From: Candidatus Thorarchaeota archaeon
Lineage (GTDB): Archaea > Asgardarchaeota > Thorarchaeia > Thorarchaeales > Thorarchaeaceae
Direction of reading: 5' to 3'
NCBI GenBank assembly: GCA_019894665.1
Contig: JAGXOC010000001.1
Span: 18,013-82,012 of the forward strand
Length of the DNA: 64,000 nt
Shown here piece after piece: positions 6,158-54,237 of the stretch. Below the pieces are notes generated by a model. The model made no database searches and was not told the origin of the DNA. It saw nothing but the letters and a program-made list of their open reading frames with translations. Position 1 is the first letter of the stretch; each line of letters begins with the position of its first letter. A program made the translations under genes and the position numbers.

Positions 6158-7234
6158 ATGAGGAATTCAGACACTTGTAGGGTTGGTTTTCTCTGGAATC
6201 CTAGTTTAGAGACCTTCGATTTTGGTACCAAGCATCCAATCAGGATTGGACGATTCCAGATGGTTCGTGATTTTCTTGAAGCTAATAATTTCCTTAGCCA
6301 ACCTAATGTTGAAATCCTTACCCCTGAACCAATTCCAGATGACTTACTGAAGATTATTCATGCTCAGAATTATTTGAATGAGGTCCGAAGAATCTCCGAA
6401 ACTGGTGAAGGTGAGATTGCCGTCGATACACCTGGATACCTAGGGATATTCGAGAATGCAAGTATAACCTCTGGTGCAACCGTTACGGGAGTTCGTGCTA
6501 TAGCGTCTGGGCGTATAGACCATTTCCTATCGCCAACCGGAGGATTCCATCACGCTAAATTTGATTGGGGCGGAGGATTCTGCATCTTCAACGATGTTGC
6601 TGCGGCAGTCTATGAGTTGAAGAAACTAGGCTATCATCGAATACTGGTTGCGGATTTTGATGTTCATCACGGAAACGGGACACAGACATATTTCTATGAG
6701 GATCCAGATGTCATGCAGATTTCATTCCATGAAGATCCTGAGTGGATGTTCCCTCATGATGGGTTCATTGAGGATATCGGAGAAGGGCCTGGTCGTGGAT
6801 ATAACATCAACATGCATTTCCCTATGGACTCCTGCGACGGAGTTTACAAGTATGCCTTTGATGAGATTGTGCCCCGACTAGTGGAGTTCTTCAAACCTGA
6901 ATTCATAATCTTCCTCCCCGGATTCGATGCCCATTATAGAGACCGTCTTGCCCACCTCAACCTAACAACTGACATGATTAGATACATCACTACATTCTTT
7001 CACAATGCTGCCCACAGATACAGCGAGTGTCGGTTTGGCGTCCTAGCAAGCGGTGGCTATTCCAAAGATTCCCTGAATTGGGGTATCGGAGTAGTCATGT
7101 CAGTGCTCTCTGGTTATGACTATGAGCCACCGAAACAAGAACCCCCCTACGGAGATGATGATGAGACTTGGGACACTGTTCGAGGGAATGTTGAGAAAGT
7201 CAAGAGCCTCGTTTTTCCTGAACTTGGAATCTAG
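6158..7234 (+). CDS. histone deacetylase / acetoin-utilisation AcuC family deacetylase
   Basis: Class I/II HDAC signature (ADFDVHHGNGTQ, Zn/charge-relay His-His). GGGFCIFND motif. Length typical of the family. Confidence 0.8.
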   Translation: MRNSDTCRVGFLWNPSLETFDFGTKHPIRIGRFQMVRDFLEANNFLSQPNVEILTPEPIPDDLLKIIHAQNYLNEVRRISETGEGEIAVDTPGYLGIFENASITSGATVTGVRAIASGRIDHFLSPTGGFHHAKFDWGGGFCIFNDVAAAVYELKKLGYHRILVADFDVHHGNGTQTYFYEDPDVMQISFHEDPEWMFPHDGFIEDIGEGPGRGYNINMHFPMDSCDGVYKYAFDEIVPRLVEFFKPEFIIFLPGFDAHYRDRLAHLNLTTDMIRYITTFFHNAAHRYSECRFGVLASGGYSKDSLNWGIGVVMSVLSGYDYEPPKQEPPYGDDDETWDTVRGNVEKVKSLVFPELGI

Positions 7235-7246
7235 GATGTTATCTCA

Positions 7247-8125
7247 TCAATCTGGTTTCCAGAAATGTAGTAGATATTCGAAAGTCGTTGTAAGTGTGAT
7301 ATAGTTTGAAGGCCAACCAAAAATCCCAACCTTGTTCACAATGTTCCGTCTATCCCAGATGATAGTATTTCGAAGTTCATATCCAACCTTTTGAAGTGCT
7401 TCAACGACGTCAATGTGAATTGGGACTCGCTTTCCCTCCCACCAATAATCTGTGATGTTGATTACACAATGACCTCTTGGTTTGAGAATTGGTAGTATTC
7501 CTTTAAAGATATCACCGAGAGTATCAGCATACTCATTCACTTCCATCGTGCCCAGGTCTCTAGGGTCTTTGGAATACTGCTGTACTTTCAGAAAGTGCTC
7601 ATCTTCCCTGAGGTCTCCTCTCTTACTCTTATTCTTACGTTTCCTATTCAGAAGGTTTGCGTATGGTGGGGATGTGACACATAGACTCACAGTTTCATCA
7701 TCAAAGTAATCGTGAATATTCTTGGCTTCATCATGAATCGCCAGCTGACTTGAACCATTCTCATTACTTAACACTCTTGAATTTGCATGATCAACATACT
7801 CTGCCTTCAGATCAAAACCAACTGCATTACGGCCTAGATCCTGTGCAGCAACTAATGTTGTACCGCTTCCTACAAACGGGTCAATAACGAGCTCACCTTG
7901 ATGGGTGAACAACTTGATGCATTTAGTTGGAAGTGAAATTGGAAAAACAGCAGGATGTACGTTCTTGTCTCGAATGTCCCTCTTCTCGTAATAAAACTCC
8001 CATATGGCGATCTGTGACTGCATCCACTCCTTTGCAGTCAAGCAGTTGATGTGTTTTGGTCGGCAATCACATGTACGTGTGTGTCCAATCTTCAGAGGTT
8101 TCGAAATCTCCTGCAAAAGCATCAA
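7247..8125 (-). CDS. DNA N4-cytosine/N6-adenine methyltransferase (PF01555-like). Motif I precedes motif IV
   Basis: AdoMet motif I (IDPFVGSGTT) preceded by HPAVFP. Catalytic motif IV is SPPY (VTSPPYANL). A C-terminal EYLLHFWKP motif resembles the E.ilvF.K motif of this family. Confidence 0.75.
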   Translation of the reverse strand: MMLLQEISKPLKIGHTRTCDCRPKHINCLTAKEWMQSQIAIWEFYYEKRDIRDKNVHPAVFPISLPTKCIKLFTHQGELVIDPFVGSGTTLVAAQDLGRNAVGFDLKAEYVDHANSRVLSNENGSSQLAIHDEAKNIHDYFDDETVSLCVTSPPYANLLNRKRKNKSKRGDLREDEHFLKVQQYSKDPRDLGTMEVNEYADTLGDIFKGILPILKPRGHCVINITDYWWEGKRVPIHIDVVEALQKVGYELRNTIIWDRRNIVNKVGIFGWPSNYITLTTTFEYLLHFWKPD

Positions 8126-8177
8126 GAGTCAATTACTCATCATCCATATGGCACTTGCTATTTTTCAAATCATCAAT

Positions 8178-9794
8178 CTATGAGAAATTGGTTGATTCAA
8201 TGAATATTGACTGGAAATCTTTGTGAGATGCCAACTCAATGTAATTGACTTTGGAGACGAAATCTTCAGCAACCTTTCTCGCCTCTGATGAAAGAAGAAG
8301 CGCTTTTGCACCTTCTCCTGCTGCGTTGCCCACCTGAATGATCTGTTCTCTCCTAATGGGCGGTAGCAACCCAATCCGAAGTGCACTCTCAGGTTGGATA
8401 TAACTTCCAAATGCACCTGCTAACATCACGGAATCAATATCATTGACAGCGACCCCAGCTTCCTGCATCAGTATTGTAATCCCTGCATGAATTGCAGCCT
8501 TCGCCAACTGAACCTGTCGAACATCTTTCTGAGTGAACGAAATCTTACGCGATACATCTGACTCTTCTACGAGCAAGTAACTTAGTCCAAAATCATCATC
8601 ACGGTATACTCTGGGAGAAACCGACTGTATCCCTCCAGTATCATTAATTATTCCAGTTCGTCGCATCTCTGCAACAGTATCAACAATTGCTGAACCACAG
8701 ATGCCTTGTGGTGCAACATTACCAATGACCGTAATTTCCGGAGGTTCTTCCAGGTTTTCGATTAATACGTGCTCTATGGCTCCTTCTTGGCCCCGCATTC
8801 CATATCGTATAGTTGCTCCTTCAAAAGCTGGTCCTGCCGCTGCTGAACAGCACGATAATTCTCCTCGGTTTGATAGGACAATTTCACCATTGGTTCCAAC
8901 ATCAATCCCTACAACAATCTGATCAGACAAGTCCAATCTCTGAGAGAGAATGAAACCAACGGTGTCTCCCCCAACAAATCCCGCGATGTTCGGTGGTAGA
9001 TACACCTCAATATTGGGAGCAGACAATAGACCCAATTCTGAACCTGAGGTGACTAATGCATCTCGAATAGACGGTTCATATGGTGTGACCCCCAATGATT
9101 TGACATCTGCGCGTAGTAATAGGTGGTGCATTGCTGTGTTTCCAACAATCGCCATTCTTGTCAGGTATTCCATCTCAATACCTGAACCCTCTATGAGAGA
9201 ACCAACCATCGAATCAAACTCTGTTGTGACTCTCTTTGAGAGCTCCACTTGCCCATTTTCCTCTCTGAGGGCATGCGTAATCCTTGATATGACATCCTCG
9301 CCAAAGACCACCTGTGGATTGAGTGATGCTAATTGACTCATCTGAACTCCTGAGCCCAATGCAAGGAGATATGCCACAATTGTGGTTGTTCCCAGATCGA
9401 TAGCAATTCCATAACGACCTTCGCCTCCGGTATCTGGAATCCAATCCTCCAGTCGAGAGACCCCCTCGGTAAGTATCTGTACCTCACCTCGTCGCTTAGT
9501 TATTACAACTCGTGTGTCTGCCATCACTCTGTGTTGACATGCCAAACGGACACCTTGCGCTAGATCACCCGAAGATATCCTTCTCTCATCTTCGAGTGTC
9601 GGCTCTGGGGCTGGCTGTAGAACAAGTGAGCATTTCCCACAGGTTCCTGCACCTCCACAATCTGAGGACAAATGAAGTCCGACCATCCTTATGGCTTCAA
9701 GAAAAGTGTTCTGTTCATCCATGGATATACGTAGACCAGATGGCTCGAAAACGACTATGTATTTCTTCAATCTACTCAATCCTTGTGGTGTCAT
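8178..9794 (-). CDS. RACo-like corrinoid reductive activase: [2Fe-2S] ferredoxin domain fused to an ASKHA-family ATPase
   Basis: N-terminal plant-type ferredoxin Cys pattern (SDCGGAGTCGKCSLV ... LACQH). ASKHA phosphate-1 motif (GIAIDLGTTTIVAYL). Later Gly-rich motifs (VGIDVGTNGE, IVGNTAMHHLLL). Divergent from a corrinoid/Fe-S enzyme gene. Confidence 0.6.
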   Translation of the reverse strand: MTPQGLSRLKKYIVVFEPSGLRISMDEQNTFLEAIRMVGLHLSSDCGGAGTCGKCSLVLQPAPEPTLEDERRISSGDLAQGVRLACQHRVMADTRVVITKRRGEVQILTEGVSRLEDWIPDTGGEGRYGIAIDLGTTTIVAYLLALGSGVQMSQLASLNPQVVFGEDVISRITHALREENGQVELSKRVTTEFDSMVGSLIEGSGIEMEYLTRMAIVGNTAMHHLLLRADVKSLGVTPYEPSIRDALVTSGSELGLLSAPNIEVYLPPNIAGFVGGDTVGFILSQRLDLSDQIVVGIDVGTNGEIVLSNRGELSCCSAAAGPAFEGATIRYGMRGQEGAIEHVLIENLEEPPEITVIGNVAPQGICGSAIVDTVAEMRRTGIINDTGGIQSVSPRVYRDDDFGLSYLLVEESDVSRKISFTQKDVRQVQLAKAAIHAGITILMQEAGVAVNDIDSVMLAGAFGSYIQPESALRIGLLPPIRREQIIQVGNAAGEGAKALLLSSEARKVAEDFVSKVNYIELASHKDFQSIFIESTNFS

Positions 9795-9886
9795 GGAAGG
9801 GGTTGTGTATTGTTTTTACTGTTCTCCTATGGAAGAATGTATTAGTTGCGTTGCTGTGTTTGCGCTATCAAATTGGAGACCCACTA

Positions 9887-11248
9887 ATGTTTGTGAGAAC
9901 TGGTGCATGTGATCCCTCATCATGCAACAATGAGTGTCTTGAAGCATGTCAAAGAGTGCATGGTGACGTATCACCATTGACTTTTCAAGAGGGTCAGGAC
10001 TATCCAGTAATCAACCTTGAAACATGTACCACCTGCCTTGCTTGCGTTCGCGCCTGTCCGTTTGATGCTATTACAGCAGAACGTACCGACGGGAGAAGTC
10101 CACCTAGGCCGGTTGAATTGAGTGTCCATGAGGGGTCAGATTATAGCCCCTATGAGGTGGCGGACGGTCTCAAACAAATATCAGAGGCTGACACAGTCTT
10201 TGCAAGAGTCCAATTCGATTCCGAGTTTCAATATTATCACCAGACTGAATTCTCTGGTGCACAGCTGATGATCTCGAAAGATATACCTGGATATGGTCGG
10301 TTTGAGCATGAGCTCAGCGTCGCAGCATGGAAGCTCTACGACTCACGCAACTCAATACAACGACCAGGAATAGGTCTTGACCCGGATGCCAGCGAGGCTG
10401 GGGAAAAGAATGTGACCAATCCTGAAGAATTGACTCAGATGGTGAAGAAAGCTGCACGATTCTTTGGTGCAGATCTTGTTGGGATTGCTCCACTTAATCG
10501 AGATTGGTTATACACTTTGAATCGGCGAGGAGAACCGAATATTGTTCCTGAATCATTGGAATTTGTTATCGTTATGGCAATAGAGATGGACTATGACGCT
10601 ATAGCAACATCACCCGCCTTCACGAGCTCAGCAGCGACAGGTCTTGGATATTCATCAATGGCTTTTGCTGAACTTGAACTTGCCGCCTTTATCCAAAGGC
10701 TTGGTTATAGCGCAATGACATCTGGTAACAATGTATCGCTAAGTGTTCCACAAGCAATTGATGCTGGTCTTGGCCAATATGGACGTCATGGGATACTGAT
10801 AACAAAGGAATTTGGTCCGCGGGTGCGGATTGCAAAAGTACTCACGGATATGCCACTTCTGAGGGACTATCCAAATGAGGGCTTTTGCAAATCAGTCGTG
10901 CGCTTTTGTGAGACCTGCAAGAAATGTGCAACCTCATGCCCCTCTCAATCGATACCATACGGTAAAGAACAGACCTGGGGAGGAACCAGCATCTCGAATA
11001 ATCCTGGCGTCAAGAAATGGTACGTCAATGTTGAGAGCTGCTATGGGTTCTGGGTTGAGAATGGTGCGGAATGTTCTAATTGTATCCGTTCATGCCCTTA
11101 CAACAAAAAGGATGGAAGCTTTCATCGGATGATTCTGTGGTTTGTACAACATACACCTTGGCTTAATCGATTGATCGTCAAAATGGATGACATTGCTGGA
11201 TATGGTAAACAAAAGAGTGGAAACAGGTTTTGGAAGAAATTTAGTTGA
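9887..11248 (+). CDS. reductive-dehalogenase-like (RdhA/QueG superfamily) corrinoid Fe-S protein with an N-terminal ferredoxin-like extension
   Basis: Start moved to the ATG at 9887, because the track start at 9512 overlaps the RACo gene. N-terminal CTTCLACVRACP. C-terminal twin cluster motifs CETCKKCATSCP and C-x10-CSNCIRSCP, the Cx(n)CxxCxxxCP pattern typical of RdhA. No Tat signal peptide. Confidence 0.5.
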   Translation: MFVRTGACDPSSCNNECLEACQRVHGDVSPLTFQEGQDYPVINLETCTTCLACVRACPFDAITAERTDGRSPPRPVELSVHEGSDYSPYEVADGLKQISEADTVFARVQFDSEFQYYHQTEFSGAQLMISKDIPGYGRFEHELSVAAWKLYDSRNSIQRPGIGLDPDASEAGEKNVTNPEELTQMVKKAARFFGADLVGIAPLNRDWLYTLNRRGEPNIVPESLEFVIVMAIEMDYDAIATSPAFTSSAATGLGYSSMAFAELELAAFIQRLGYSAMTSGNNVSLSVPQAIDAGLGQYGRHGILITKEFGPRVRIAKVLTDMPLLRDYPNEGFCKSVVRFCETCKKCATSCPSQSIPYGKEQTWGGTSISNNPGVKKWYVNVESCYGFWVENGAECSNCIRSCPYNKKDGSFHRMILWFVQHTPWLNRLIVKMDDIAGYGKQKSGNRFWKKFS

Positions 11249-11320: not shown

Positions 11321-12841
11321 GTGATTTGTGCCAACAATAACATGAATAAATCTGATTTCGGAGTATGGGTTGATATGCCACAAAATGCTGGAAAGCGGGC
11401 AAAAAAGGGGAAAACTAAGACTCCAAAGAAAGAGAAATTCAATCTCCCCGATTTTAATGATGAAATTCTAAACGATATTATCAACAACTCACTCGAAGGA
11501 ATCGGAATCATAGGTGAAGATTACAAAATTGAGTATGCCAACGAGAATTACTGCAAGATTCTTGGTGTTCCTAACCTCATAGGTCATGACTTCCGCAATT
11601 ACTTTGAACAAGATCTGTGGAAAACACTTTCTGACCGCTATGGAGCAAGGCGAAGAGGTGAGGCTCTATCCGGTGTGTATCAGATGAATATCATTCACAA
11701 GGATGGAGAAGTCCGCACAGTTGAAGGTCGGGCTTCCATGGCCATTGGTCCTGACGGAAAACCAAAGATTATTGCACATCTCTTGGATATCACAGAAGTC
11801 CTTGCTGACTCAGAGGCTCTTGAAGAATCAGAGACTCGCTATCAGATGTTAATTGAAACAATGGATGATGGCTTAGTCATTGACGACCCGGATGGAAATC
11901 TCGTTTATACAAATGATGCTTTCTGCAAAATGCTTGGTTACACTTCTGATGAGATAGTTGGAACTTCATGGATTGATTTGACTGAAGGTTTGAACTCTGA
12001 GGATATTGCAACGAAAATTGCAGAGCGAAGATCTGGGAAATCCGAGAGTTACGAGCTACGCTGGATTACTAAGTCCGGTGAGAGTGTGCCAACTATTGTC
12101 TCAGCAACACCTTACATCGACAGAGATGGGAAGTTTGTAGGGACATTTGCAGTGATAACTGAAATCTCGGAACAGAAAGAAGCTGAGGCCGCTGTCCAAT
12201 TCTATCTTGATCTATTAAGCCATGATATTGCAAACCAACTCCAGGTGATAATGACTAGTAGTGGTCTTCTAGAGGAAGAAGTTCCCGCATCATATATTGA
12301 TGACGCCCGAAAGGACATCTTGGACGCTGTAGAGCGATGCAATAGACTCATCACAAAAGTAAAACGTGCGGCTCAAATCCGATACATTCCCCTATCTCGA
12401 ATTGATGCGATGCCAATCTTAAAGGAAAAAATCAAGGTCCTAGAACGAGTTTATGGTGCAAAGGTGCACCTTCAAGGATTGAAGAAGATTCTTCCTGTTG
12501 AGGCTGATGTCCTACTAGGTGAGATGATTTGGAATCTTCTTGAGAACGCAGCACGTCATAATCCAAAGGACGAAAAGCAGGTGTGGGTTACTTGCGAAAC
12601 AAAAACCGATACATGCAGCATTGTTATTGGTGATGATGGTCCAGGTCTCAGTGATATGAGAAAAAAGACTCTATTCACTGAACGAAAACATGGTGGCGGA
12701 GTAGGACTTACTCTGGTATCTCAAATGATCCGAAAATATGGTGGGTCGATCGAGGTACAGGATCGGGTAATTGGCAAACCAGCTATGGGCACAAAGTTTA
12801 TTGTCACTCTGAGAACGGCAGACCCTCGCGAGAAACGATAG
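11321..12841 (+). CDS. sensor histidine kinase with tandem PAS domains
   Basis: PAS cores (IIGEDYKIEYANENYCKILG; VIDDPDGNLVYTNDAFCKMLGY). H-box LSHDIANQLQVI. N-box LLENAARHN. G1 DDGPGL. G2 GGGVGLTLVSQMIRKYGGSIEV. Confidence 0.8.
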   Translation: MICANNNMNKSDFGVWVDMPQNAGKRAKKGKTKTPKKEKFNLPDFNDEILNDIINNSLEGIGIIGEDYKIEYANENYCKILGVPNLIGHDFRNYFEQDLWKTLSDRYGARRRGEALSGVYQMNIIHKDGEVRTVEGRASMAIGPDGKPKIIAHLLDITEVLADSEALEESETRYQMLIETMDDGLVIDDPDGNLVYTNDAFCKMLGYTSDEIVGTSWIDLTEGLNSEDIATKIAERRSGKSESYELRWITKSGESVPTIVSATPYIDRDGKFVGTFAVITEISEQKEAEAAVQFYLDLLSHDIANQLQVIMTSSGLLEEEVPASYIDDARKDILDAVERCNRLITKVKRAAQIRYIPLSRIDAMPILKEKIKVLERVYGAKVHLQGLKKILPVEADVLLGEMIWNLLENAARHNPKDEKQVWVTCETKTDTCSIVIGDDGPGLSDMRKKTLFTERKHGGGVGLTLVSQMIRKYGGSIEVQDRVIGKPAMGTKFIVTLRTADPREKR

Positions 12842-22076: not shown

Positions 22077-23039
22077 ATGGTCACCGAGAAAAGCGATGCT
22101 GCTATTGAAGAAATCCAAGGAAAAGTAGACAAACTTTCTGTGGAACTTGCTAGTATACGTGAGGAGCTAACAGTGCTCACTTCCGTACCAGAAATAGACA
22201 AGAAAATTGACACTCTTAGTAAGAGTGTTGAGAAGGTTTGTGACGCTAAGGAAATTCAAGAAGTTGGAAAGAAGTTAGACGATCTGGCTAAATCGTTGAA
22301 GGGATTGGACCAAACAAAGAAACTGGACGATATCACAAAGTCAGTCATAGCGATTGACTCGACTGTGAAAGAAGTCAATGATTCCAAAGAGTCAGCTGTC
22401 ATCATAAAGAAGATTGATGATATTCTTGTGTCTCTGGCTGACAGTGAATCTGTACCAAAGAAATTGGATGACCTTCAGAATTACGTTGCAGGGCTTTCAG
22501 GTATAGAGGAGAAAGTTCAGGACCTCGCAGGCCAATTTGAAGAAACAAAAGAGATTGTGGGGATTATTGTTCGCCAACTGGATGATATTGAGCGGAAATA
22601 TAATCTGGCAATCGATAGGGTCACAGAGGCAGTTGACACACTCACCGACTTCATTAAATCCGGGGTTGCTACTTCATCTGAATCTAAGACACCTACGAAG
22701 AAACCCAATGAAACCATAGATGAAGAGAAACCCAAAATTAAACCTCCATCCACGGTTAATTTGCCATCAACCATTGACGCATTAATGGATAACCTGATGA
22801 CTCTGGTGATCCCGCAGACTGAAGCAAAAGAGATGGCTGAAGCTCTTGAGGAAGTGCGTGATGAGCTTACTACAATGATTAGGGGACACACACCGGTACT
22901 CTTCCAATTTGGTAAACGCGCTCGTGAACTGAAATCATATCCGCCAACTGCGACATTGAATGAAAATGATATTGCTAGTCTAAGTCGTGAAATCAAATCA
23001 TGGAAAAGCAAACTCAAAGAAGTGACTAGCAGTAGCTGA
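22077..23039 (+). CDS. coiled-coil protein with at least 5 tandem repeats of about 35 aa
   Basis: Repeats: KKIDTLSKSVEKV / KKLDDLAKSLKGL / KKLDDITKSVIAI / KKIDDILVSLADS / KKLDDLQNYVAGL. Confidence 0.55.
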   Translation: MVTEKSDAAIEEIQGKVDKLSVELASIREELTVLTSVPEIDKKIDTLSKSVEKVCDAKEIQEVGKKLDDLAKSLKGLDQTKKLDDITKSVIAIDSTVKEVNDSKESAVIIKKIDDILVSLADSESVPKKLDDLQNYVAGLSGIEEKVQDLAGQFEETKEIVGIIVRQLDDIERKYNLAIDRVTEAVDTLTDFIKSGVATSSESKTPTKKPNETIDEEKPKIKPPSTVNLPSTIDALMDNLMTLVIPQTEAKEMAEALEEVRDELTTMIRGHTPVLFQFGKRARELKSYPPTATLNENDIASLSREIKSWKSKLKEVTSSS

Positions 23040-24074: not shown

Positions 24075-27000
24075 ATGAGTGATGAAGCAGTTACGGAAGT
24101 AGTATCCGTATTGAAAAAGAATCTAGGCATCACGGATGTCGAGTCCAAGGTAATACTACCTGTTTACCTTGGTGGGAACATGACCGCTGGTGGAGTGTCT
24201 CTCATGTCAGGTGAGAAACTACCCACGGTCAAGAAAACCCTGAAGCGACTTGTTCAGAAGGGAATGGTCAAAGAGATAGATGGCATAGTTACAATATATC
24301 GTTCTGTGCCCCCGAACTTAGCACTATCAGATAATCTGTCGTCCTTCTTGGGTGACGTTCAAAATCTGACCGAGTTATCAGAGAAGACCTTCAGCTCAAA
24401 AGACGAAGATATTGACATTAATGTTGAGAAGGTTATCACTTCTCAGGATGAATCACTAGAAACTGTCAGAACCTCTCTCGCCAAATATGAGGATGAAATG
24501 CTGGATCTAGTAGGCAGTCGCATTGATCAAGTCAAAACTACCGCTACTGCAGTGATGGGTGCTCTCTCTGAAGACATTGAGGACATTATGAACAAGCTAG
24601 ACTCATCGCTAGATAACAGACTGGGAGCCAAGCTCACTGAATTACAAGGTGAGATTGACAAGAGCCAGGTAGGATTAGAAAAAGATGCGAAACGAATTTC
24701 CCGTGAGTTCGATAAATGGTTGAAAGTTGAAAGAAAGACCACGTTAGTCACAATTTCGGAATTTGAAACCAAAGCTCAATCACTCATAGGTGTCGCGCGG
24801 GACGCAGTCACCAAAGCGCTTGAAGCATCCTCCGCTGCGCTACAGAATATCACTCAAGAAATGACAAAGGCACTGAGCTCGATGACTTCCAATGCATCCG
24901 ATAAAGGAGTCGAGATTCTCAATTCAGTGTCAGAAGACCTCACTACTCTTCTTGCTCATTTGGAAGCTGAACTAGCCCATACTTACTTAGCTAGTCAAGA
25001 ATCTCTACGAGAAGTAATGGCTCAAGCACGAACTATACCCACCGAGTTCGGAGATTTCACAAAGAACAAGATAAACGCAGCAGTTGATATTGTTGAAGGT
25101 GTGAGTAGAGATGTTGATGACTGGAAAGAAGAAGTATCTAATTTTATGGACGTGGCATCCCAATCCGTGACTTCACAACTTGAACAGGTAGCATCTACAG
25201 ATGCGAACTACATAGAGGTGCTTAAAAATACTCTCACATCACACACAGAGAAATTGAACGGAATGATTAGTGAAGAATATCATCAAGTACAAGGTCTTGC
25301 AACAACCCTTGGAACTGATTGTGAAACTACACTTGCGGATACTCGTGTTCTGGTGCTAGAACTCCTAGAGAAAGAAAATGCAACAGAGCAAGCAGGGTGT
25401 GATGAAGCAGCTAAGACACTCCACTCAGAACTTGGTAATTGGGTACAAGGCACTGTACAAAACATCGAGAAGAATATGAAAACAACATCTGATGATATTT
25501 CCACTATTCTTGATACAGAATCTAGCGAGTTAAACTCCCTTGCTGCAGCGATGAATAGTAGATTGAAATCCGCATTCAATTCGATCATCAAATCTACAAC
25601 CACAAAGAATGAAACATTGATCACCTCAGTCAAGAAAACAACGCATGACTTTGAGGCAAGTGTTGGAACACAACTGGTGAAACTGATTGGAAGTTTTGCT
25701 AATACCACAGAGAAACAAGTTCTTGATTCAAGGAAACTCTATGAACGTCTGAGAGGTCGGCTTGACAAACGAATGACTGAGAGAGTCACTACGATAAGTT
25801 CTCAGGCCGATAGAATTGAAACTGAAATTGAAGCAATAATCACGCAACAAGTAAATCGAATTGACCAACACACTTTGGGCATTCGTGATGAGTTTCATAC
25901 ACGCCTTGAAGACATAACCCGTCAATTCATTACCCTGACCCAAGGTATCGAAGCGACTTTCAATGGTCTCCTTTCTAGTCAGACTGTTGAGGCTCGTGAC
26001 TTAATTGCATCAACTCATACAGAGTTTAAGACCGCTATGAAATCTGAAATGGTTGGTCTAAAGGAAGACTCTGTGAAATTGCAGCAGGAGTACTCTACAG
26101 AGCTTGGACTCAAAATCGATGAAGTCACTTCATCAATTGCTGGCGTGAAACACGCACTTGAGGAGATATCTGTTCAAAAGCGATTTGAAATCTCAGAAAG
26201 TATGGCTAAGGCTCTTACCACTCTGGAAACTTCAATTCGGAGTACCGAAGATAATTTGCGTCAGATGGAAACTGGCATCATCAATCAATTCACAGAAAAC
26301 CTTGATCAGGTCAGTCAGGAATTCCATGTTACTGTTGATGGTACACGTGATACTATCGCAGAGCGTTTAGATAATGTTCGAGCGGTAACAACAGATGCCA
26401 TAGAGAAAAGTAGTACAGCTGCGCAAAGAGCGGCTGATGCATTTGTTTCAGAACAAAAGGACCACAAGCAGCGACACTTGGCTGATACTAGCAAGAAGAT
26501 AAACCGCCTTGCTACAAAACTAGTGAAAGCATCTAAAGTAAAAATCGAGGAATTCCGTGCTGAACTTTCCGAATGTGAAACTGGTGGAGTGAAAGGTAGG
26601 AATTCAACAAAAGAGGAGATTATTCGAGCCGTTGAGGAACGGAGAGCGGAAGTAACGCAAGCATTCGATGCTGCTTCAGTTTGGGTTGACTCAACAGTTT
26701 CCAACCTGGGAACATCACTAGAAACCTTTGGATCCAAACTTGGTAACGACCTTACATTGATGCAAAGAAATCTCCAGAAAGCAGCTGAGGAAGCTTCTGC
26801 AGCTGTAATTGAACGTGGAGATGCAGATATTGACAAACTAGCAGAGATTACAACGACGCTCTTCGAAGACGCGGAATCCACTGTCACTGCTCGAATTGAT
26901 GACTTTGGAGGCAGTTGCGCTAATGCTTTAGTCAAGGGTAACGATGCATTCACCTCAATGCCTAATACTATGACAGAAAAAATTGAAGAAGTTGACAATG

Positions 27001-27968
27001 TAATCATCAAAGAAACAAATCAAAACTACAGCAAGGTGGCTGACAAGCTATCATCTTCATTTACGGAATTCCAGCGATCTGCTGAATCAGCTTCTGAAGA
27101 GTTTCGAAATCTGCTTGAAAAATCTTCAATTCAGACAACTGAGAAACGGAACGAGGCAATCACAGCCATACAAGAGAGTGCAAATCTGACCAACCAACAT
27201 GCAGCACGAAAATTGGAAACAATAGGCTTGGAGTTAAAAACACAGCTCAGTACTCAATCCTCAACTTTGATTGAGAAAACTCAATCTGATCTGGCTGCCA
27301 AGAATCTAGTCCTAACTGAAGCTGTCACTGATGCAAGCAATCAATCGAGTGAAGGAGTAACTCTGCTCCGACAAACACGAAGCGATGCGCTCTCTGCGTT
27401 CAGTGATCAGGTGGATAAATCATTCCGACGATGGTCAAATACCCAGAAAATGGAGATAGCCTCCTTGAGTGAAAATGTACAGGAAACCATAGCTGGAGTC
27501 ACCGAATTGACTTCAAAAGCTGTTGGTAATCTCAATGCAATCCATGAAGCAAGTGAAAGAATGCTTGATGTTTCGACTAGCAGAACCTGGTATCTTAGTG
27601 GGACTCAGGAGGCCTGTGCTCATATCGGTGACATGGTCCGTCGAGCCGAAGAATCGGTCGTTGTGGCAGTTCATGATGTGTCATGTCTAGATTTGAAGAA
27701 CCTTGCGAGGATAAAGACTCCTAAAAGGAGAGTTCTCATCGTACCTGAAACAGAAGATCCAGAAACAGTTCTCGAAATTATGGCTGGCTGGCGTGTATGG
27801 CAGACAAAAACTCCAATGCTTCTTTCGGTTATTGATGATCGTGAGATTCTTATCGGAGGTGCAAGAGATTCGGACTCTCCAATAGCGGTAGTTTCCGATG
27901 ATGCTTCATATCTCAAGCTTTACCATGATGTTTTGGGTCCGCAGTTAATTCAAAACAAAGTATCTTGA
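24075..27968 (+). CDS. giant (1297 aa) coiled-coil protein: N-terminal wHTH-like domain and a C-terminal globular domain
   Basis: The N-terminal 75 aa resemble a TrmB/MarR-type wHTH (VILPVYLGGNMTAGGVSLMSGEKLPTVKKTLKRLVQKGMVKEIDG). More than 1000 aa follow with a Q/E/K/L/T-rich helical pattern. No Walker A, so not SMC/Rad50, and no MCP signalling core. Last ~150 aa non-repetitive. Confidence 0.6.
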   Translation: MSDEAVTEVVSVLKKNLGITDVESKVILPVYLGGNMTAGGVSLMSGEKLPTVKKTLKRLVQKGMVKEIDGIVTIYRSVPPNLALSDNLSSFLGDVQNLTELSEKTFSSKDEDIDINVEKVITSQDESLETVRTSLAKYEDEMLDLVGSRIDQVKTTATAVMGALSEDIEDIMNKLDSSLDNRLGAKLTELQGEIDKSQVGLEKDAKRISREFDKWLKVERKTTLVTISEFETKAQSLIGVARDAVTKALEASSAALQNITQEMTKALSSMTSNASDKGVEILNSVSEDLTTLLAHLEAELAHTYLASQESLREVMAQARTIPTEFGDFTKNKINAAVDIVEGVSRDVDDWKEEVSNFMDVASQSVTSQLEQVASTDANYIEVLKNTLTSHTEKLNGMISEEYHQVQGLATTLGTDCETTLADTRVLVLELLEKENATEQAGCDEAAKTLHSELGNWVQGTVQNIEKNMKTTSDDISTILDTESSELNSLAAAMNSRLKSAFNSIIKSTTTKNETLITSVKKTTHDFEASVGTQLVKLIGSFANTTEKQVLDSRKLYERLRGRLDKRMTERVTTISSQADRIETEIEAIITQQVNRIDQHTLGIRDEFHTRLEDITRQFITLTQGIEATFNGLLSSQTVEARDLIASTHTEFKTAMKSEMVGLKEDSVKLQQEYSTELGLKIDEVTSSIAGVKHALEEISVQKRFEISESMAKALTTLETSIRSTEDNLRQMETGIINQFTENLDQVSQEFHVTVDGTRDTIAERLDNVRAVTTDAIEKSSTAAQRAADAFVSEQKDHKQRHLADTSKKINRLATKLVKASKVKIEEFRAELSECETGGVKGRNSTKEEIIRAVEERRAEVTQAFDAASVWVDSTVSNLGTSLETFGSKLGNDLTLMQRNLQKAAEEASAAVIERGDADIDKLAEITTTLFEDAESTVTARIDDFGGSCANALVKGNDAFTSMPNTMTEKIEEVDNVIIKETNQNYSKVADKLSSSFTEFQRSAESASEEFRNLLEKSSIQTTEKRNEAITAIQESANLTNQHAARKLETIGLELKTQLSTQSSTLIEKTQSDLAAKNLVLTEAVTDASNQSSEGVTLLRQTRSDALSAFSDQVDKSFRRWSNTQKMEIASLSENVQETIAGVTELTSKAVGNLNAIHEASERMLDVSTSRTWYLSGTQEACAHIGDMVRRAEESVVVAVHDVSCLDLKNLARIKTPKRRVLIVPETEDPETVLEIMAGWRVWQTKTPMLLSVIDDREILIGGARDSDSPIAVVSDDASYLKLYHDVLGPQLIQNKVS

Positions 27969-37135: not shown

Positions 37136-37897
37136 ATGGCTACAAATGCTGAGAGTAAAGCGGCTGGTAAATCCGAAGATGGAGTGAAAACTTCACAAGA
37201 GCTTGAATCCCTAAAGTGGATTCGTGAAAGACGTTCCATCAGAGAATTCACTGGCGAAAAAATATCCGATGAGCACATCGAGTTGATTTTGGAAGCGGCG
37301 CGACATGCACCGAGTCCAGAGAACATGTTGATGATGCGTTTCGTTGTAATACGTGATGACCAGGATAGTAAGGTTTTCCTAGCAGATATCGCCCAGGAAA
37401 TGGCTCAAACTGCTTTCGGAGGAGCTCCATTTGAACTCACAAGTGGAAGAAACTGGTTTATCAGTGATCCTTACAGAGCGGCAGTCTATGCGAGACTGAG
37501 GGATGGAGAGTTATTCAGATATCCGGAAAAGAGCGACACTGTGATTATTGTTTGTGCAAGTGAAGCTTGGCATGATGCTGGATATCTCTACCCCAATTCA
37601 CTATTTGGATCGGTAGTCTGTGGAATGGCAATCCAAAATATGTGGCTGACCGCCACAGAACTTGGATATGGATGCGGGTATGAGGCACTAGTCTGTTCTG
37701 ATCCCCGTCATGCTCAACTTCTACGTGACCGATTCGGCATCCCACCAATTTGGGAGCCTATAACTGCCTTTTGTATTGGCCAGCGCGTTTCACCACGTGC
37801 TTTAGGTCCCAGCAGAGCCCCTCTTGAGGGTCTGATGTACGAAGAGCGATGGGGCAAACCATACAAGAGACTCGCGTTCAGGAAGGAGGACAAGTAA
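37136..37897 (+). CDS. nitroreductase-family flavoprotein, copy 1
   Basis: RERRSIREFTGEKISDEHIELILEAARHAPSPENMLMMRFVVIRDD matches the nitroreductase N-terminal region. Paralog of the 44358-45122 gene. Confidence 0.65.
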   Translation: MATNAESKAAGKSEDGVKTSQELESLKWIRERRSIREFTGEKISDEHIELILEAARHAPSPENMLMMRFVVIRDDQDSKVFLADIAQEMAQTAFGGAPFELTSGRNWFISDPYRAAVYARLRDGELFRYPEKSDTVIIVCASEAWHDAGYLYPNSLFGSVVCGMAIQNMWLTATELGYGCGYEALVCSDPRHAQLLRDRFGIPPIWEPITAFCIGQRVSPRALGPSRAPLEGLMYEERWGKPYKRLAFRKEDK

Positions 37898-37898
37898 T

Positions 37899-38426
37899 AT
37901 GGACGTCAATTTTGAAGGTAAAACTCTAGATAACATGAAGGAATTAGCTGAAGAGGCTGGTCTTACCCCTGAAGGCTTTATCGAGGTTGTCATGGAGCAA
38001 TTCGTTGACAACAAAGGTGGACGAGTCTACTCAGGCAGATGGTCCGGTGGAGTTGTTGACGGCGAAAAGGGCTTTCGCTATGTCCCGCAATGGCCTTTCC
38101 GACCCGGCTTCAAAGAAGCCGAGGGAGACAAGGTGAAGGGCTGGAAGTCTGGAGGCAAATCTTTCAGACCTCATCCTACTGGAGCTTGGCCTTTCTATCC
38201 GCGACTGAAAGAAGGCGACATCGAGCACGAATACTGGAACACTAAGAAGATGATTCATCAATCCTTCATCAACGACAGAAAGGGACGCGTTGTAGTACTA
38301 ATGGATGGCGACAGATATGATAACTTTCTCGACAAGGTGAAAGCGAGGAAAGGTAATTTCTGGGCGAACTCCGTTGACGATTCTATGCAAGAGGCTGTGG
38401 ATGACTGGATGGCTAAGGAGGAATGA
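37899..38426 (+). CDS. hypothetical Gly/Trp/Lys-rich protein
   Basis: 175-aa ORF translationally coupled between the nitroreductase and the SCP2 gene (GRWSGGVVDGEKGFRYVPQWPFRPGFKEAEGDKVKGWKSGGKSFRPHPTGAWPFYPRLKEG). No known domain. Confidence 0.5.
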   Translation: MDVNFEGKTLDNMKELAEEAGLTPEGFIEVVMEQFVDNKGGRVYSGRWSGGVVDGEKGFRYVPQWPFRPGFKEAEGDKVKGWKSGGKSFRPHPTGAWPFYPRLKEGDIEHEYWNTKKMIHQSFINDRKGRVVVLMDGDRYDNFLDKVKARKGNFWANSVDDSMQEAVDDWMAKEE

Positions 38427-38430
38427 AACA

Positions 38431-38790
38431 ATGTCACAACTACAAGAATTTTTCAAATTCCTGATGACCCAATGCAACACCAAGGATGACCTTAAGAAAC
38501 AGCTCGCCGCTTGGGTTGGTCCCTATCACGGTAAAATCCTTCAGGTTCATACTGAGGAAGGTGACCAATACATGGTGGTGACAAAGGACAAGATCGAGTT
38601 ATTCGAGGGAAGCTATCCTAGTCCTGATGTCACCTACAAATCGAGTGCTGCAATATTGCTTGGTATCTTCACTGGTGAAGTTCCATTCAAAGACACAATG
38701 AAGGACGGAAGTCTTCAGGTCATTGGCAACGCGAACGAAAGCGACCCTCTTGCTAATCTAATTCTTCAGGTAATGATGGGTGCGATGTAG
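38431..38790 (+). CDS. SCP2 sterol-carrier-like domain protein
   Basis: AAILLGIFTGEVPFKDTMKDGSLQVIGNANESDPLANLI matches the SCP2 C-terminal pattern. Start moved to the ATG at 38431 behind a GGAGG RBS. Confidence 0.5.
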   Translation: MSQLQEFFKFLMTQCNTKDDLKKQLAAWVGPYHGKILQVHTEEGDQYMVVTKDKIELFEGSYPSPDVTYKSSAAILLGIFTGEVPFKDTMKDGSLQVIGNANESDPLANLILQVMMGAM

Positions 38791-38801
38791 GAGGAATTGC
38801 T

Positions 38802-39923
38802 ATGGTTAACAAGATTGCCGTCATTGGCTCTGGACTTATGGGTTCAGGAATTGCATACGTGTCCGCGTGGAATGGTATCACTGTCACCATGGTTGATATC
38901 AAACAAGAGTTCATCGACAAGGGTATGGAACGACTCCGAACTGATGTTATGACTGGTATCGACAAAGGGAAGATTACCATGACTCAGGCTGAAGGTCTTA
39001 TGAGTAGGCTCAGCGCAACAATTGATATTGAAGAGGCTGTCAAAGACGCAGACCTTGTCATTGAAGCCATCTTCGAGAATATGGAGGTCAAGAAAGAAGT
39101 TTTTGCCAAGATAGATGCCGCGGCGCCTGCACACGCAATACTGGCTACAAACACATCGTCGCTAAGTATTGATGAGCTAGCAACAGCCACGAAGAGGCCG
39201 GACAAATTCATAGGTATGCACTACTTCTCACCGGTCCCAGCTATGAAGCTATTAGAGCTCGTAATTGGGGACAAGACCAGTGCAGAGACCATTGCTACTG
39301 CTGAAGCTGTGGGCAAGACCCAGGGAAAAACAACAGTCATAGCAAAGAACAGTCCTGGATTCATAGTAAATCGCCTTCTCATGCCAGTTATGCGCGAGGC
39401 AATACTAATGCTGGAGCGTGGAGAGGCAACGAAGGAGGAGATTGACAATGCTATGCTGCAAGTCGGAAAAGCTCCCGCCGGTCCCTTCACATTGGGTGAC
39501 TTTGTGGGTCTCGATATTGCTTACAATGCTATGTCAACCCTATACAGAGAGATTGGTGACTGTTTCAAACCACCTGATACTCTAAAGAACCTCGTTGAAT
39601 CTGGTGCTATCGGTATGAAATCCAAAAAGGGCTTCTACTCGTATGGTGCGGATATTGTAGAACCTGAGGCACCAAAGGGTGCAGATCCGAACTGGATTGT
39701 AGAGCGATTGAATATGCCAGCTGTTCGTGAAGCTATGATTTTGGTGGATGACGATATCGCCAACAAGGAAGACATTGATATGGCCATGAAGCTAGGAGCA
39801 AGCTGGCCCATGGGTCCTTTTGAGATGGCGGATAAATTTGGACTTGACAAGATCAAAGAGTTTCTGACGAAGCTCGAGAGCGAATCAGGTGCTTGTTACT
39901 CGGTTCCGAAATATCTGGAATAA
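38802..39923 (+). CDS. 3-hydroxyacyl-CoA dehydrogenase, copy 1
   Basis: Rossmann fold (IAVIGSGLMGSGIA). NTSSLSI. Duplicated C-terminal 3HCDH_C region. Confidence 0.8.
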   Translation: MVNKIAVIGSGLMGSGIAYVSAWNGITVTMVDIKQEFIDKGMERLRTDVMTGIDKGKITMTQAEGLMSRLSATIDIEEAVKDADLVIEAIFENMEVKKEVFAKIDAAAPAHAILATNTSSLSIDELATATKRPDKFIGMHYFSPVPAMKLLELVIGDKTSAETIATAEAVGKTQGKTTVIAKNSPGFIVNRLLMPVMREAILMLERGEATKEEIDNAMLQVGKAPAGPFTLGDFVGLDIAYNAMSTLYREIGDCFKPPDTLKNLVESGAIGMKSKKGFYSYGADIVEPEAPKGADPNWIVERLNMPAVREAMILVDDDIANKEDIDMAMKLGASWPMGPFEMADKFGLDKIKEFLTKLESESGACYSVPKYLE

Positions 39924-40059
39924 ATCAGATCAAGAAATGGGTGGGGAGTTTCCCTACCCTATCTCTTCTTTTTTTCGATAACAATGCTCATTCGCGAGAA
40001 TGAACGATGTTTATAAGTCAGTCACTCTCTCCGAGAAGATATAGACTCCAAATAGGTGG

Positions 40060-40878
40060 TTGAATATGCCAGAGTATGAAACAATACTTTATTCAAAAGA
40101 GGGCTCGTTCCTTTCCCCTGAAAAGAACGTGGCCGTAATTAAGATGAATCGCATTGATGCAATGAATGCTTTTAATGCTAAAATCCTCGAAGAGCTTGTG
40201 GCAGCATTACAAGAGGCTGAGAATGATCCAGAGGTTAGATCAATTGTAATCGCGTCAACACATGGCAAGGTGTTTGGTGTTGGTGCAGACCTAAAGGATG
40301 CGCAGGCTCTACTAGGCAAACCCGATGAGGTCAGACCTCTCTTGGAACAGGGGATAGAAGCAATCGATACTGTTGCAAAACTTAGCAAACCGGTAATAGC
40401 AGCCATAAATGGACTCTGTCTTGGCGGTGGAACCGAACTTGCTCTCGCCTGTGATATCCGAATCTGCGATACTGAAGCTAAAATTGGAACCCCTGAGGTG
40501 AGTTTAGGTTTAATTCCATCATGGGGTGGATGCGTTAGACTTCCTAGAATTGTAGGACTTGGGAAAGCAATGGAGATAATTCTAACTGGTGGTCAGGTCA
40601 CAGCTCAAGAGGCTCTTGATATGGGTCTTGTAAGTAAAGTTGTAACCAAGGATGAGTTGCTAAGCCAAGCTATGTGGTATGGTGCAAAACTGGGCGGCAA
40701 TGCACCTGTCGCTTTGAAGCTAGCAAAACAAGCCACGCATATGGCTTTCGAAGAAGACTACAAGGACAACTTTGAATTTCTAATTGATGCAGGTGTTGAA
40801 TGTTTCAAGACTAAGGATCTTGGTGAGGGAATCGCCTCAGTCTTTGAGAAGCGACGTGGCAAGTTCACTGGAGAATAG
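40060..40878 (+). CDS. enoyl-CoA hydratase/crotonase family protein, divergent copy
   Basis: Oxyanion-hole motifs (FGVGADLKD; INGLCLGGGTELALACDIRI). Confidence 0.8.
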   Translation: MNMPEYETILYSKEGSFLSPEKNVAVIKMNRIDAMNAFNAKILEELVAALQEAENDPEVRSIVIASTHGKVFGVGADLKDAQALLGKPDEVRPLLEQGIEAIDTVAKLSKPVIAAINGLCLGGGTELALACDIRICDTEAKIGTPEVSLGLIPSWGGCVRLPRIVGLGKAMEIILTGGQVTAQEALDMGLVSKVVTKDELLSQAMWYGAKLGGNAPVALKLAKQATHMAFEEDYKDNFEFLIDAGVECFKTKDLGEGIASVFEKRRGKFTGE

Positions 40879-44357: not shown

Positions 44358-45122
44358 ATGACAACGAAAGCAAAAGGAAAATCGGATAGTAGTAGTGAGA
44401 AGCTAGAAGACACAAAGATTGCTTCAGGGCTCGAAGCAATGAAGCATGTTAGGTCTCGACGCTCAATCCGAGAGTTCACTGGCGGGAAGATTCCTGATGA
44501 TCACATCGAGCTGATATTAGAAGCAGCACGACATGCTCCAAGTCCTGAGAACATGTTAATGATCAGGCTAATTGTGATACGAGATGACCAGGCAACAAAG
44601 GAATTCTTAGCAGACATAGCACATGAAAATGCACGGACAGTATTTGGTAACTCTCCTTTTGAGCTCACAAGCGGAAGAAATTGGTATATCGGAGATGAAT
44701 TTCGAGCCGCTGTGTTCTCTCGACTTCGGGAGGGGACGCTTTTCAGGTATCCCGAGAAGAGCGATACCGTCATAGTTGTGTGTGCAAGTCATGCGTGGCA
44801 CGATGCAACCAAATTGTACCCCAATGAACTCTTCGGATCTGTTGTTGCAGGTATGGCTATACAAAACATGTGGATGGTCGCAACTGCAATGGGGTATGGT
44901 TGCGGCTACGAGGCTTTGGTTTGCTCAGACTCACGACACACTCAGTTAATTCGTGATAGAATTGGAATCCCACCGATTTGGGCACCTTTGACAGCATTTT
45001 GTATTGGTGTTCCTGTTTCTACAAGACATCTGGGACCCAGTCGACCACCACTAGAAGGACTACTGTATGATGAACGATGGGGTAAACCATACAGAAGGAT
45101 TGCATTCAGAAAAAAGGAGTGA
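44358..45122 (+). CDS. nitroreductase-family flavoprotein, copy 2
   Basis: SRRSIREFTGGKIPDDHIELILEAARHAPSPENMLMIRLIVIRDD. About 65% identical to copy 1 over the full length. Confidence 0.65.
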   Translation: MTTKAKGKSDSSSEKLEDTKIASGLEAMKHVRSRRSIREFTGGKIPDDHIELILEAARHAPSPENMLMIRLIVIRDDQATKEFLADIAHENARTVFGNSPFELTSGRNWYIGDEFRAAVFSRLREGTLFRYPEKSDTVIVVCASHAWHDATKLYPNELFGSVVAGMAIQNMWMVATAMGYGCGYEALVCSDSRHTQLIRDRIGIPPIWAPLTAFCIGVPVSTRHLGPSRPPLEGLLYDERWGKPYRRIAFRKKE

Positions 45123-46255: not shown

Positions 46256-46274
46256 CAGTGGGTGTGAGAAAACT

Positions 46275-49565: not shown

Positions 49566-49566
49566 A

Positions 49567-49818
49567 CTATTCGTCGTCTTCCTTTTGGTTGTCTTCCCAG
49601 ATTCGACCAAAGAATACGAATGCCAGAACTAGTTCGGATCCGCTAGCATTCTGTGCAATATGCTCAATTGACTCACTGATTGTGTCCTCATGTTCCCATG
49701 CCTGTCGAGCAAGGTTTACAATGTCTTCAAAGCGGTGGTCAGGTATATCGAGAGCCTGTGTGAGTTTTTTCACGTCATGGCTGCCAACAACAAGTGTGCC
49801 GAGGTCATAGGTAGGCAT
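49567..49818 (-). CDS. hypothetical small protein
   Basis: 83-codon ORF convergent with the FGGY kinase gene and divergent from glpA. No motif. Confidence 0.3.
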   Translation of the reverse strand: MPTYDLGTLVVGSHDVKKLTQALDIPDHRFEDIVNLARQAWEHEDTISESIEHIAQNASGSELVLAFVFFGRIWEDNQKEDDE

Positions 49819-49963
49819 TGGTCATTCACTAAATCAACCCGCGAATATCTCCTTTTAATGTAATCTTGACTATCATTTACTTTCTTATCCAATCCGAAAC
49901 CTTAGTATTGCACGCACGTTCACTACACATATCCAAACCCCCGAAGCAGTATCTCAGGAAAAG

Positions 49964-52990: not shown

Positions 52991-52991
52991 A

Positions 52992-54230: not shown

Positions 54231-54237
54231 ATGCCAA

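Follow-up and report, generated by a model that had tools for sequence, protein, structure and literature searches.

A RACo-family activase and a cytoplasmic reductive dehalogenase homologue encoded side by side in Thorarchaeota: probably separable genes, one of them a likely remnant of a corrinoid methyltransferase operon

We analysed a divergent gene pair in 64,000 nucleotides of DNA from Candidatus Thorarchaeota archaeon (assembly GCA_019894665.1, contig JAGXOC010000001.1, positions 18,013 to 82,012 of the forward strand). This whole stretch is referred to as the window, and positions are counted from its first letter. One gene of the pair encodes an activase of the RACo family, and the other encodes an enzyme of the reductive dehalogenase (RDase) family, RdhA. 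We conclude, with a probability of about 0.7, that these are two neighbouring, functionally separable genes: an Asgard-type cytoplasmic RdhA, and a RACo that survives from an ancestral operon encoding MtrH, RACo and a corrinoid protein (CoP) and that acts in trans. The initial annotation of this DNA had proposed a self-contained unit, in which an ATP-dependent reactivator is paired with the RdhA-like enzyme. Comparison of gene order across genomes does not bear this out.

Gene order around rdhA in Asgard archaea and relatives

We retrieved 80 loci encoding RdhA relatives, one genome per GTDB species, and mapped the neighbours found in the window onto them. A large subgroup of Thorarchaeota shares a colinear block with genes for a Cache sensor, a TPR/VWA protein, a beta-propeller protein, HDAC, (a DNA methylase), RACo, RdhA, a PAS kinase, a radical SAM protein, the proteasome alpha subunit and RimK. 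Because the entire 15-20 kb neighbourhood is colinear, the adjacency of RACo and rdhA within it is weak evidence for a functional unit.

The slot upstream of rdhA is found in several states (Table 1). Pfam matches for one full locus (L033) identify MtrH (PF02007, E 2e-72) and show that CoP carries the B12-binding domains PF02607 and PF02310. In three other loci, of one Thor lineage (L019, L022 and L055), unrelated genes stand between HDAC and rdhA. These are two radical SAM genes, a gene for an LplA-like/DUF116 fusion and one for a FAD_binding_3 oxidoreductase (positions 5044-9771 of L055), all co-directional with rdhA; the oxidoreductase of this type has a weak match to Trp_halogenase.

Table 1. 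States of the slot upstream of rdhA, with the loci in which each was found.
State	Arrangement	Loci
Full	CoP-RACo-MtrH on one strand, diverging from rdhA	L012, L021, L025, L029, L032, L033, L035, L036, L087
Full, partial contigs		L018, L023, L024, L027, L028, L030, L065
Intermediate	CoP and RACo, diverging from rdhA	L006, L008, L010, L014, L046, L082, L089
RACo-only		window, L001-L005, L007, L011, L015
Empty	HDAC abuts rdhA	L009, L013, L017, L020, L045, L068

In a neighbour-joining tree of RdhA, the full form occurs in three deep clades. The RACo-only loci make up a single derived clade, save for one nested empty locus (L009), and the empty locus L013 is sister to the full locus L012. The simplest history compatible with these sequences would be an ancestral MtrH-RACo-CoP operon beside rdhA that was eroded repeatedly while rdhA stayed. 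In the clade to which the window belongs, the MtrH and CoP genes would have been lost from the locus and RACo would have remained back-to-back with rdhA.

The placement of the operon against rdhA in three deep clades, and the need of both systems for a cobamide, could also indicate that CoP, RACo, MtrH and the divergent RdhA were ancestrally one module (for demethylation and dehalogenation of halogenated methoxy-aromatics or halomethanes, for example), of which the window holds a reduced version. Anaerobic cassettes for halomethanes and dichloromethane reportedly join corrinoid methyltransferases with reductive activators. We consider such a module very unlikely. The colinearity of the whole block makes adjacency a weak argument here as well, the trio was repeatedly lost while RdhA stayed, and it also occurs alone in another context (L081). 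Moreover, the cluster is without an MT1-type substrate methyltransferase.

How often the two genes occur together was counted in both directions. Sufficient upstream sequence was available for 34 syntenic loci: 23 of them have RACo no more than 3.2 kb upstream of rdhA, and 11 are without it. CoP is adjacent in 14 of the 23 and MtrH in eight. Only one of 19 non-syntenic Asgard loci, a short contig of the full form, has RACo within this distance (the other 18 do not), and none of the eight loci from Bacteria, Bathyarchaeia and Archaeoglobi does. No RACo was found within 10 kb of RdhA in the Heimdall, Hermod, Borr, bacterial, Bathyarchaeia or Archaeoglobi loci, and every Heimdall-, Hermod- or Borr-labelled locus with enough upstream sequence keeps RdhA without RACo.

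For the reciprocal sample we took seven RACo homologues (52-56% identity) on contigs without a listed RdhA homologue. Three of them adjoin rdhA, in each case together with CoP (L082, L087, L089). The complete MtrH-RACo-CoP trio occurs in an unrelated context without rdhA in L081, and in L088 RACo stands in an unrelated context with none of MtrH, CoP and rdhA. The remaining two, L083 (4956-6638) and L086 (4501-6093), have the usual block without rdhA, in the order PAS kinase-RACo-(PRTase)-HDAC; the RACo protein of L086 recurs on 22 contigs. Given RdhA loci that lack RACo and RACo loci that lack RdhA, either gene can be lost while the other stays.

These counts speak against the proposal that RACo is a dedicated ATP-dependent reactivator of the adjacent RdhA, possibly docking on its N-terminal ferredoxin domain, with the two forming a self-contained unit at least in the window's clade. 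A third of the syntenic loci (11/34) and 18 non-syntenic Asgard loci of other types have kept RdhA without RACo, and RACo persists without RdhA in the very same block (L083, L086). In addition, orthologous RACo genes lie in MtrH-RACo-CoP operons, so the canonical client of this protein is a small corrinoid protein. Methyltransferase systems made up of MtrH-like methyltransferases with MtbC-like corrinoid proteins have been described in Asgard archaea (PMC11291895), and a system of MtrH and a corrinoid protein is the normal setting of a RACo/RACE protein.

A second Asgard RdhA context, encoding paralogues or orthologues of the enzyme, was seen in L084 (RdhA at 7001-8371) and L085 (7001-8365). 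The order there is nitroreductase, a 55-aa open reading frame (ORF), acyl-CoA dehydrogenase, (small Fer4/PAS proteins), RdhA and a SAM methyltransferase, and RACo is absent.

The RACo protein

All three domains expected of a RACo protein score above the Pfam cut-offs: Fer2 (residues 18-90, E 2e-6), Raco_middle (128-288, E 1e-49) and RACo_C_ter/ASKHA (293-537, E 9e-84). The protein thus consists of a plant-type [2Fe-2S] ferredoxin domain (residues ~11-98), the middle domain and an ASKHA ATPase. The best match in the PDB is 3zyy (E 6e-92), in which chain residues 3-89 align with residues 11-98 of the query and chain residues 203-616 with residues 124-534; the alignment includes the nucleotide-binding stretches DLGTT, DVGTNGE and GAFG. 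The initial annotation was therefore right to describe the minus-strand product as a RACo-like protein with a ferredoxin domain and an ASKHA domain, and the possibility it had raised, that the ASKHA fold might be lacking, does not hold. Scores against the NCBIfam models AcsV (369 bits, cut-off 800) and RamA (146 bits, cut-off 500) fall well short; by these profiles, the protein is a member of the RACo/RACE family and neither an AcsV nor a RamA equivalog.

The [2Fe-2S] ferredoxin, middle domain and ASKHA ATPase are common to this protein, to RACo of C. hydrogenoformans (3ZYY/4C1N) and to bacterial RACE proteins. Unlike the C. hydrogenoformans protein, however, the window RACo has no linker domain of ~90 residues. 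Like RACo/RACE genes, its orthologues share an operon with genes for a methyltransferase and a small corrinoid protein that binds B12, whereas the window gene is without an adjacent CoP. RamA differs in having C-terminal 4Fe-4S clusters in place of the N-terminal 2Fe-2S cluster. RACo acts on corrinoid proteins with an exposable B12 domain. The window protein is predicted to use its [2Fe-2S] domain and ASKHA ATPase to bring inactive corrinoid proteins from Co(II) to the Co(I) state, with expenditure of ATP.

An acceleration of RACo evolution after loss of CoP, taken as a sign of a new client, was considered and rejected. The ratio of non-synonymous to synonymous substitution rates (dN/dS) is 0.10-0.21 within the RACo-only clade and 0.07-0.21 where CoP is still adjacent. 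RACo proteins of the RACo-only loci are 54.7% identical to the full-form outgroup and those of the intermediate loci 53.7%; within the clades, identity is 68.5% and 69.6%, respectively. With relative rate and dN/dS both unchanged, there is no evidence for either neofunctionalisation or decay. To judge from its sequence, the window RACo is intact, under purifying selection and functional, and for this reason it probably serves corrinoid proteins encoded elsewhere. It would most likely act on these in trans, and not on RdhA; we infer the identity of this client.

In comparison with locus L002 (Thorarchaeota AB_25), nucleotide identity is 86-92% across RACo only (8246-9745) and 73-85% in both flanks. 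The synonymous divergence (dS) of RACo in this comparison is 0.29, and that of the RdhA, HDAC and beta-propeller genes is ~1.0-1.2. No such rise of identity over RACo was seen in comparison with L001. The stretch looks like a gene-sized recombination tract between Thorarchaeota lineages.

The RdhA catalytic core

The product of rdhA scores 241.3 bits against the NCBIfam model for reductive dehalogenases (TIGR02486; cut-off 160.35), the profile named in the initial annotation as a check, and 50.9 bits against the QueG model (TIGR00276; cut-off 200). In sequence it matches PceA (4uqu, E 1.3e-60) and, less strongly, NpRdhA (3e-27). We aligned the protein with 38 homologues, to which statements of invariance refer unless otherwise given. 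Residues Y246, N272 and R305 of PceA align with Tyr255, Asn281 and Arg314, all of which are invariant. Also invariant are the two C-terminal [4Fe-4S] motifs that had been noticed before, C341-x2-C344-x2-C347-x3-C351-P352 and C385-x10-C396-x2-C399-x3-C403-P404, which together span nucleotides ~10907-11098.

An AlphaFold2 model made from the 38 homologues has a mean pLDDT of 82.9 and a pTM of 0.81. Foldseek places the Desulfitobacterium RDH complex (8q4h_A) and PceA of S. multivorans first (E 1e-24 to 1e-22, TM ~0.62-0.64), followed by NpRdhA (E 1e-18), with QueG far weaker (E 1e-6, TM 0.33). QueG belongs to the same cobamide/2x[4Fe-4S] superfamily as RdhA. Classification of the window protein as QueG was rejected on the sub-threshold TIGR00276 score and the much weaker Foldseek match. 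No queuosine-pathway families were found among the Pfam matches to window ORFs, so the QueG classification that would have overturned the earlier assignment did not materialise. By profile and model, the window protein is an RdhA-family enzyme, not QueG. Several close homologues (65-78% identical) are labelled 'epoxyqueuosine reductase' in the JGI automatic annotation and others 'reductive dehalogenase'; the profile cut-offs lend the QueG label no support. NCBI names RdhA homologues 'reductive dehalogenase [Candidatus Thorarchaeota]'.

The architecture of this enzyme was published by Manoharan et al. (2019, mBio; PMC6737245), who described putative Thorarchaeota RDases with an RdhA core, two C-terminal 4Fe-4S motifs and an extra N-terminal 4Fe-4S domain. 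They reported no Tat signal in these proteins and no RdhB in Thor and Loki genomes, conservation of the equivalents of Tyr246, Arg305 and Asn272, 30-33% identity to PceA, and a conserved gene neighbourhood around the RDase in Thorarchaeota. The RdhA half of the pair is thus a further example of a described enzyme class, although the protein itself is a new sequence within it (best non-identical match 87%). The closest homologues of both RdhA and RACo are from Thorarchaeota metagenome-assembled genomes (MAGs).

The enzyme might not be an organohalide dehalogenase in vivo, and may be a conserved housekeeping reductase for an endogenous substrate, as QueG is in the same superfamily. Three observations would fit such a role: nearly all Thor and Loki genomes have the protein (Manoharan et al., 2019; PMC6737245); MAGs labelled Thor, Hermod, Heimdall and Borr encode versions that are 38-87% identical, placed in conserved chromosomal blocks and not in islands; and the N-terminal domain is invariant. 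We regard this as improbable in view of the invariance of the PceA catalytic Tyr, Asn and Arg, profile scores that exceed the RDH cut-off and fall far short of the one for QueG, and a fold that is closest to PceA. In addition, a Thorarchaeota RDase (A0A5C9E7E1) appears in a list of heterologously expressed RDases active on organohalides, according to a secondary statement in a 2026 paper (PMC13101508) that cites Ng & Silver (2024).

The N-terminal Fe-S domain of RdhA

The initial annotation had noticed an extra N-terminal CxxCxxCxxxCP motif. This motif is present (C47-x2-C50-x2-C53-x3-C57-P58) and invariant, but the description was incomplete: a second motif that had been overlooked, C8-x4-C13-x3-C17-x3-C21, is invariant as well. 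The resulting eight Cys are enough for two clusters, not one. The NCBIfam RLI model matches residues 5-63 (E 1.8e-9). In a search of PDB sequences with a profile of 22 N-terminal domains, polyferredoxins scored highest, via repeated partial matches, and the FeS domains of ABCE1/RLI (6tmf_d, 3j15_B) gave the best match that covers nearly the whole profile without a break (E ~2e-14, positions 1-63 of the profile). The domain is modelled with a pLDDT of ~78-84.

The Cys spacing is shared with ABCE1/RLI (C-x4-C-x3-C-x3-C(P) ... C-x2-C-x2-C-x3-C-P). In ABCE1, however, the domain is fused to ABC ATPase domains, whereas here it is fused to the RdhA core, and the Pro after the fourth Cys is lost in Thor RdhA sequences and kept in those from Heimdall and Hermod. 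The N-terminal Fe-S domain of ABCE1 binds two [4Fe-4S] clusters. By its Cys pattern, the RdhA domain would likewise bind two, and the enzyme would then probably hold four clusters and a cobamide.

We identified the eight-Cys domain in all 65 Asgard loci with a complete, uninterrupted N-terminus, which comprise Thor-, Promethe-, Hermod-, Heimdall- and Borrarchaeota-labelled genomes and unclassified archaeal MAGs (L060, with an in-frame stop, was excluded). The N-terminal Cys motifs are absent from the retrieved relatives from Planctomycetota, Desulfatiglandales, Chloroflexota, Bathyarchaeia and Archaeoglobi; in these bacterial, Bathyarchaeia and Archaeoglobi proteins, similarity to RdhA begins near residue 80-180. 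Relative to the published description, the present analysis adds that the N-terminal domain has, on the basis of the alignment, eight Cys and is ABCE1-like, and that it also occurs in Heimdall-, Hermod- and Borr-labelled relatives.

Cellular location and proposed mechanism

As the initial annotation had stated, there is no Tat signal: residues 1-40 contain no RR motif, and the protein opens directly with the Fe-S domain. We found no hydrophobic or transmembrane segment (maximum Kyte-Doolittle mean over 19 residues, 1.14) and no rdhB beside rdhA, where the upstream neighbour is RACo and the downstream neighbour a PAS histidine kinase. The best reading is that RdhA is a cytoplasmic, non-respiratory enzyme, as had been suggested. 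Without a Tat signal, a transmembrane segment or RdhB, its reaction would take place in the cytoplasm with no direct coupling to a quinone-dependent respiratory chain.

The window RdhA shares with PceA (4UQU) and the RDH complex 8Q4H the catalytic fold, the cobamide-site Tyr, Asn and Arg, and the two [4Fe-4S] motifs. PceA, in contrast, is exported by the Tat pathway and tethered through RdhB/PceB to a complex that oxidises menaquinol, and it lacks the extra N-terminal Fe-S domain. NpRdhA (4RAS) and reductase-fused RdhAs are, like the window protein, cytoplasmic and Tat-less, with an electron-transfer module fused to the RdhA core; self-sufficient RdhAs of the reductase-fused kind were reportedly described by Fisher and colleagues in 2023. 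By analogy, the NpRdhA-type enzymes and the window RdhA likely follow the same logic of a built-in wire to a soluble donor. They differ in its form. The NpRdhA type has C-terminal flavin/[2Fe-2S] reductase modules and a Tyr/Lys/Arg site, whereas the window protein has an N-terminal two-cluster ferredoxin-like domain and no flavin, and it is closer to PceA.

In the mechanism that we propose, a soluble low-potential donor (a ferredoxin-reducing oxidoreductase or a hydrogenase) would dock on the N-terminal domain, and electrons would travel along the four clusters to the cobamide. Co(I) would then attack the carbon-halogen bond and Tyr255 would protonate the product, as in reductive dehalogenation of the PceA type. 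The reaction may serve in scavenging, in detoxification or as an electron sink. In our view, RdhA is most likely a cobamide reductase of the cytoplasm that draws its electrons from a soluble low-potential donor; donor, electron route and substrate class are deduced from sequence.

Gene coordinates and the divergent spacer

The coordinates of the pair and of its immediate neighbours are given in Table 2. The program-made ORF for rdhA opens at a GTG at 9512. We place the start at the ATG at 9887 because it is preceded by GGAG at 9875-9878 and because the start Met is identical in 38/38 aligned homologues.

Table 2. Features of the RACo-rdhA region of the window.
Feature	Position	Strand	Description
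N6/N4 DNA methylase	7247..8125	-	Pfam; occupies the slot between HDAC and RACo
RACo-family activase gene	8178..9794	-	538 aa; Pfam and PDB match
Divergent intergenic spacer	9795..9886		92 bp; promoter-like motif TATGGAAGAATGTATTAGT at 9828-9846 and GGAG ribosome-binding site at 9875-9878
rdhA	9887..11248	+	453 aa + stop; TIGR02486 and PceA match
N-terminal Fe-S domain, ABCE1/RLI-like	9887..10084	+	residues 1-66; eight invariant Cys
Low-complexity variable linker	10085..10141	+	residues ~67-85; pLDDT <50 for 68-82; columns unconserved in alignment
RdhA catalytic core	10142..11248	+	TIGR02486; PceA-type Tyr/Asn/Arg; two C-terminal [4Fe-4S] motifs
PAS sensor histidine kinase	11321..12841	+	Pfam; co-directional, 72 bp 3' of rdhA

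The promoter-like motif TATGGAAGAATGTATTAGT sits 41-59 nt 5' of the rdhA start codon. The GAAGRATG core of this motif is kept, as is the GGAG, across 16 aligned upstream regions from Thor loci, whichever gene is upstream, including empty loci in which HDAC takes the place of RACo (L009, L013). As the motif persists without RACo, it belongs to the promoter region of rdhA itself and is not a shared operator specific to RACo. A shared operator in the spacer was thus considered and rejected, the sole conserved element being the rdhA-proximal motif.

The position of the PAS kinase is conserved throughout the Thorarchaeota block. Since the kinase is also present in the loci where RdhA is missing (L083, L086), a regulatory link to RdhA is unproven. 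On the other side of the pair, CoP in other lineages adjoins RACo on the methylase side, between the methylase and RACo if both are present; in CoP-RACo loci, CoP directly abuts HDAC. The proteasome alpha subunit of the block is also encoded in the window.

Functional relationship of the two genes

Several points weigh against two separable genes with RACo acting in trans. We identified no gene for CoP, MtrH, CODH/ACS or cobamide biosynthesis, salvage or transport in the 64-kb window, in Pfam searches of essentially all ORFs of at least 110 aa and tblastn searches with Thor CoP and MtrH. RACo is kept intact beside rdhA in nine species-level genomes after the loss of its operon partners, an outcome that one would equally expect had RdhA become its client. 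Being divergent across only 92 bp, the two genes could also be co-regulated. As the RdhA tree was built from simple distances, the polarity of the losses is something that we infer from it. Finally, the cluster stoichiometry is read solely from Cys patterns, and the substrate and electron donor of RdhA are putative.

Some of the same observations favour a dedicated reactivator: the divergent adjacency across 92 bp, the RACo-only state in nine species-level loci under purifying selection, and the lack of another corrinoid client within the window. We nevertheless find it unlikely. Beyond the loci in which one gene occurs without the other, RACo shows no shift in rate after loss of CoP, and among the open-access papers searched we found none that links RACo-type activators to RdhA. 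The cobamide of RdhA enzymes is buried, and it is reduced through the enzyme's own Fe-S clusters at potentials that need no ATP. Self-reduction of this kind, the action of RACo on exposable B12 domains and the comparative data together make a dedicated unit unlikely.

A later association is a variant of the same idea. In the window's clade, RACo would have been kept by acquiring RdhA as a client, either delivering low-potential electrons to the ABCE1-like domain under the control of ATP or reactivating oxidatively damaged cobamide. We hold this to be highly doubtful. If true, RdhA would become the first reductive dehalogenase with a reactivation system that depends on ATP.

Other genes in the window

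Positions 24075-27968 (+) encode a 1297-aa protein with an N-terminal TrmB-type helix-turn-helix followed by a very long apolipoprotein-like region, presumably a coiled coil; the preceding ORF (22077-23039) has a match of the coiled-coil type (NPV_P10). Two tandem paralogous modules, at 37136-40878 and 44358-47060 (+), each encode a nitroreductase-family protein, a 3-hydroxyacyl-CoA dehydrogenase and an enoyl-CoA hydratase. Between them are genes for a thiolase, a ChsH2-like OB-fold protein and a third enoyl-CoA hydratase. At 48093-56786 (+), a FGGY sugar kinase gene is followed by genes for GlpA/B/C-like FAD and CCG/Fe-S subunits and then for a FAD-linked oxidase with a second CCG protein; this run consists of genes of the glycerol-3-phosphate/lactate dehydrogenase type.

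Implications

The value of these results is mainly corrective, as they keep an unsupported link between an ATP-dependent reactivator and a dehalogenase from spreading. The presence of a decaying MtrH-RACo-CoP operon as the neighbour of rdhA, as reconstructed from gene order, is an addition to the RDase section of Manoharan et al. (2019), where it is unmentioned. On the two-gene reading, RACo is what is left of a corrinoid methyltransferase operon that Thorarchaeota are losing piece by piece, and the locus offers a clean case of stepwise decay that leaves an orphan activase. For RdhA, the conserved Cys pattern suggests a fixed, built-in electron wire of four clusters for a cytoplasmic cobamide reductase in Asgard archaea. 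The detail of the eight-Cys module should be useful for expressing Asgard RdhAs, or in seeking their physiological donor and substrate.

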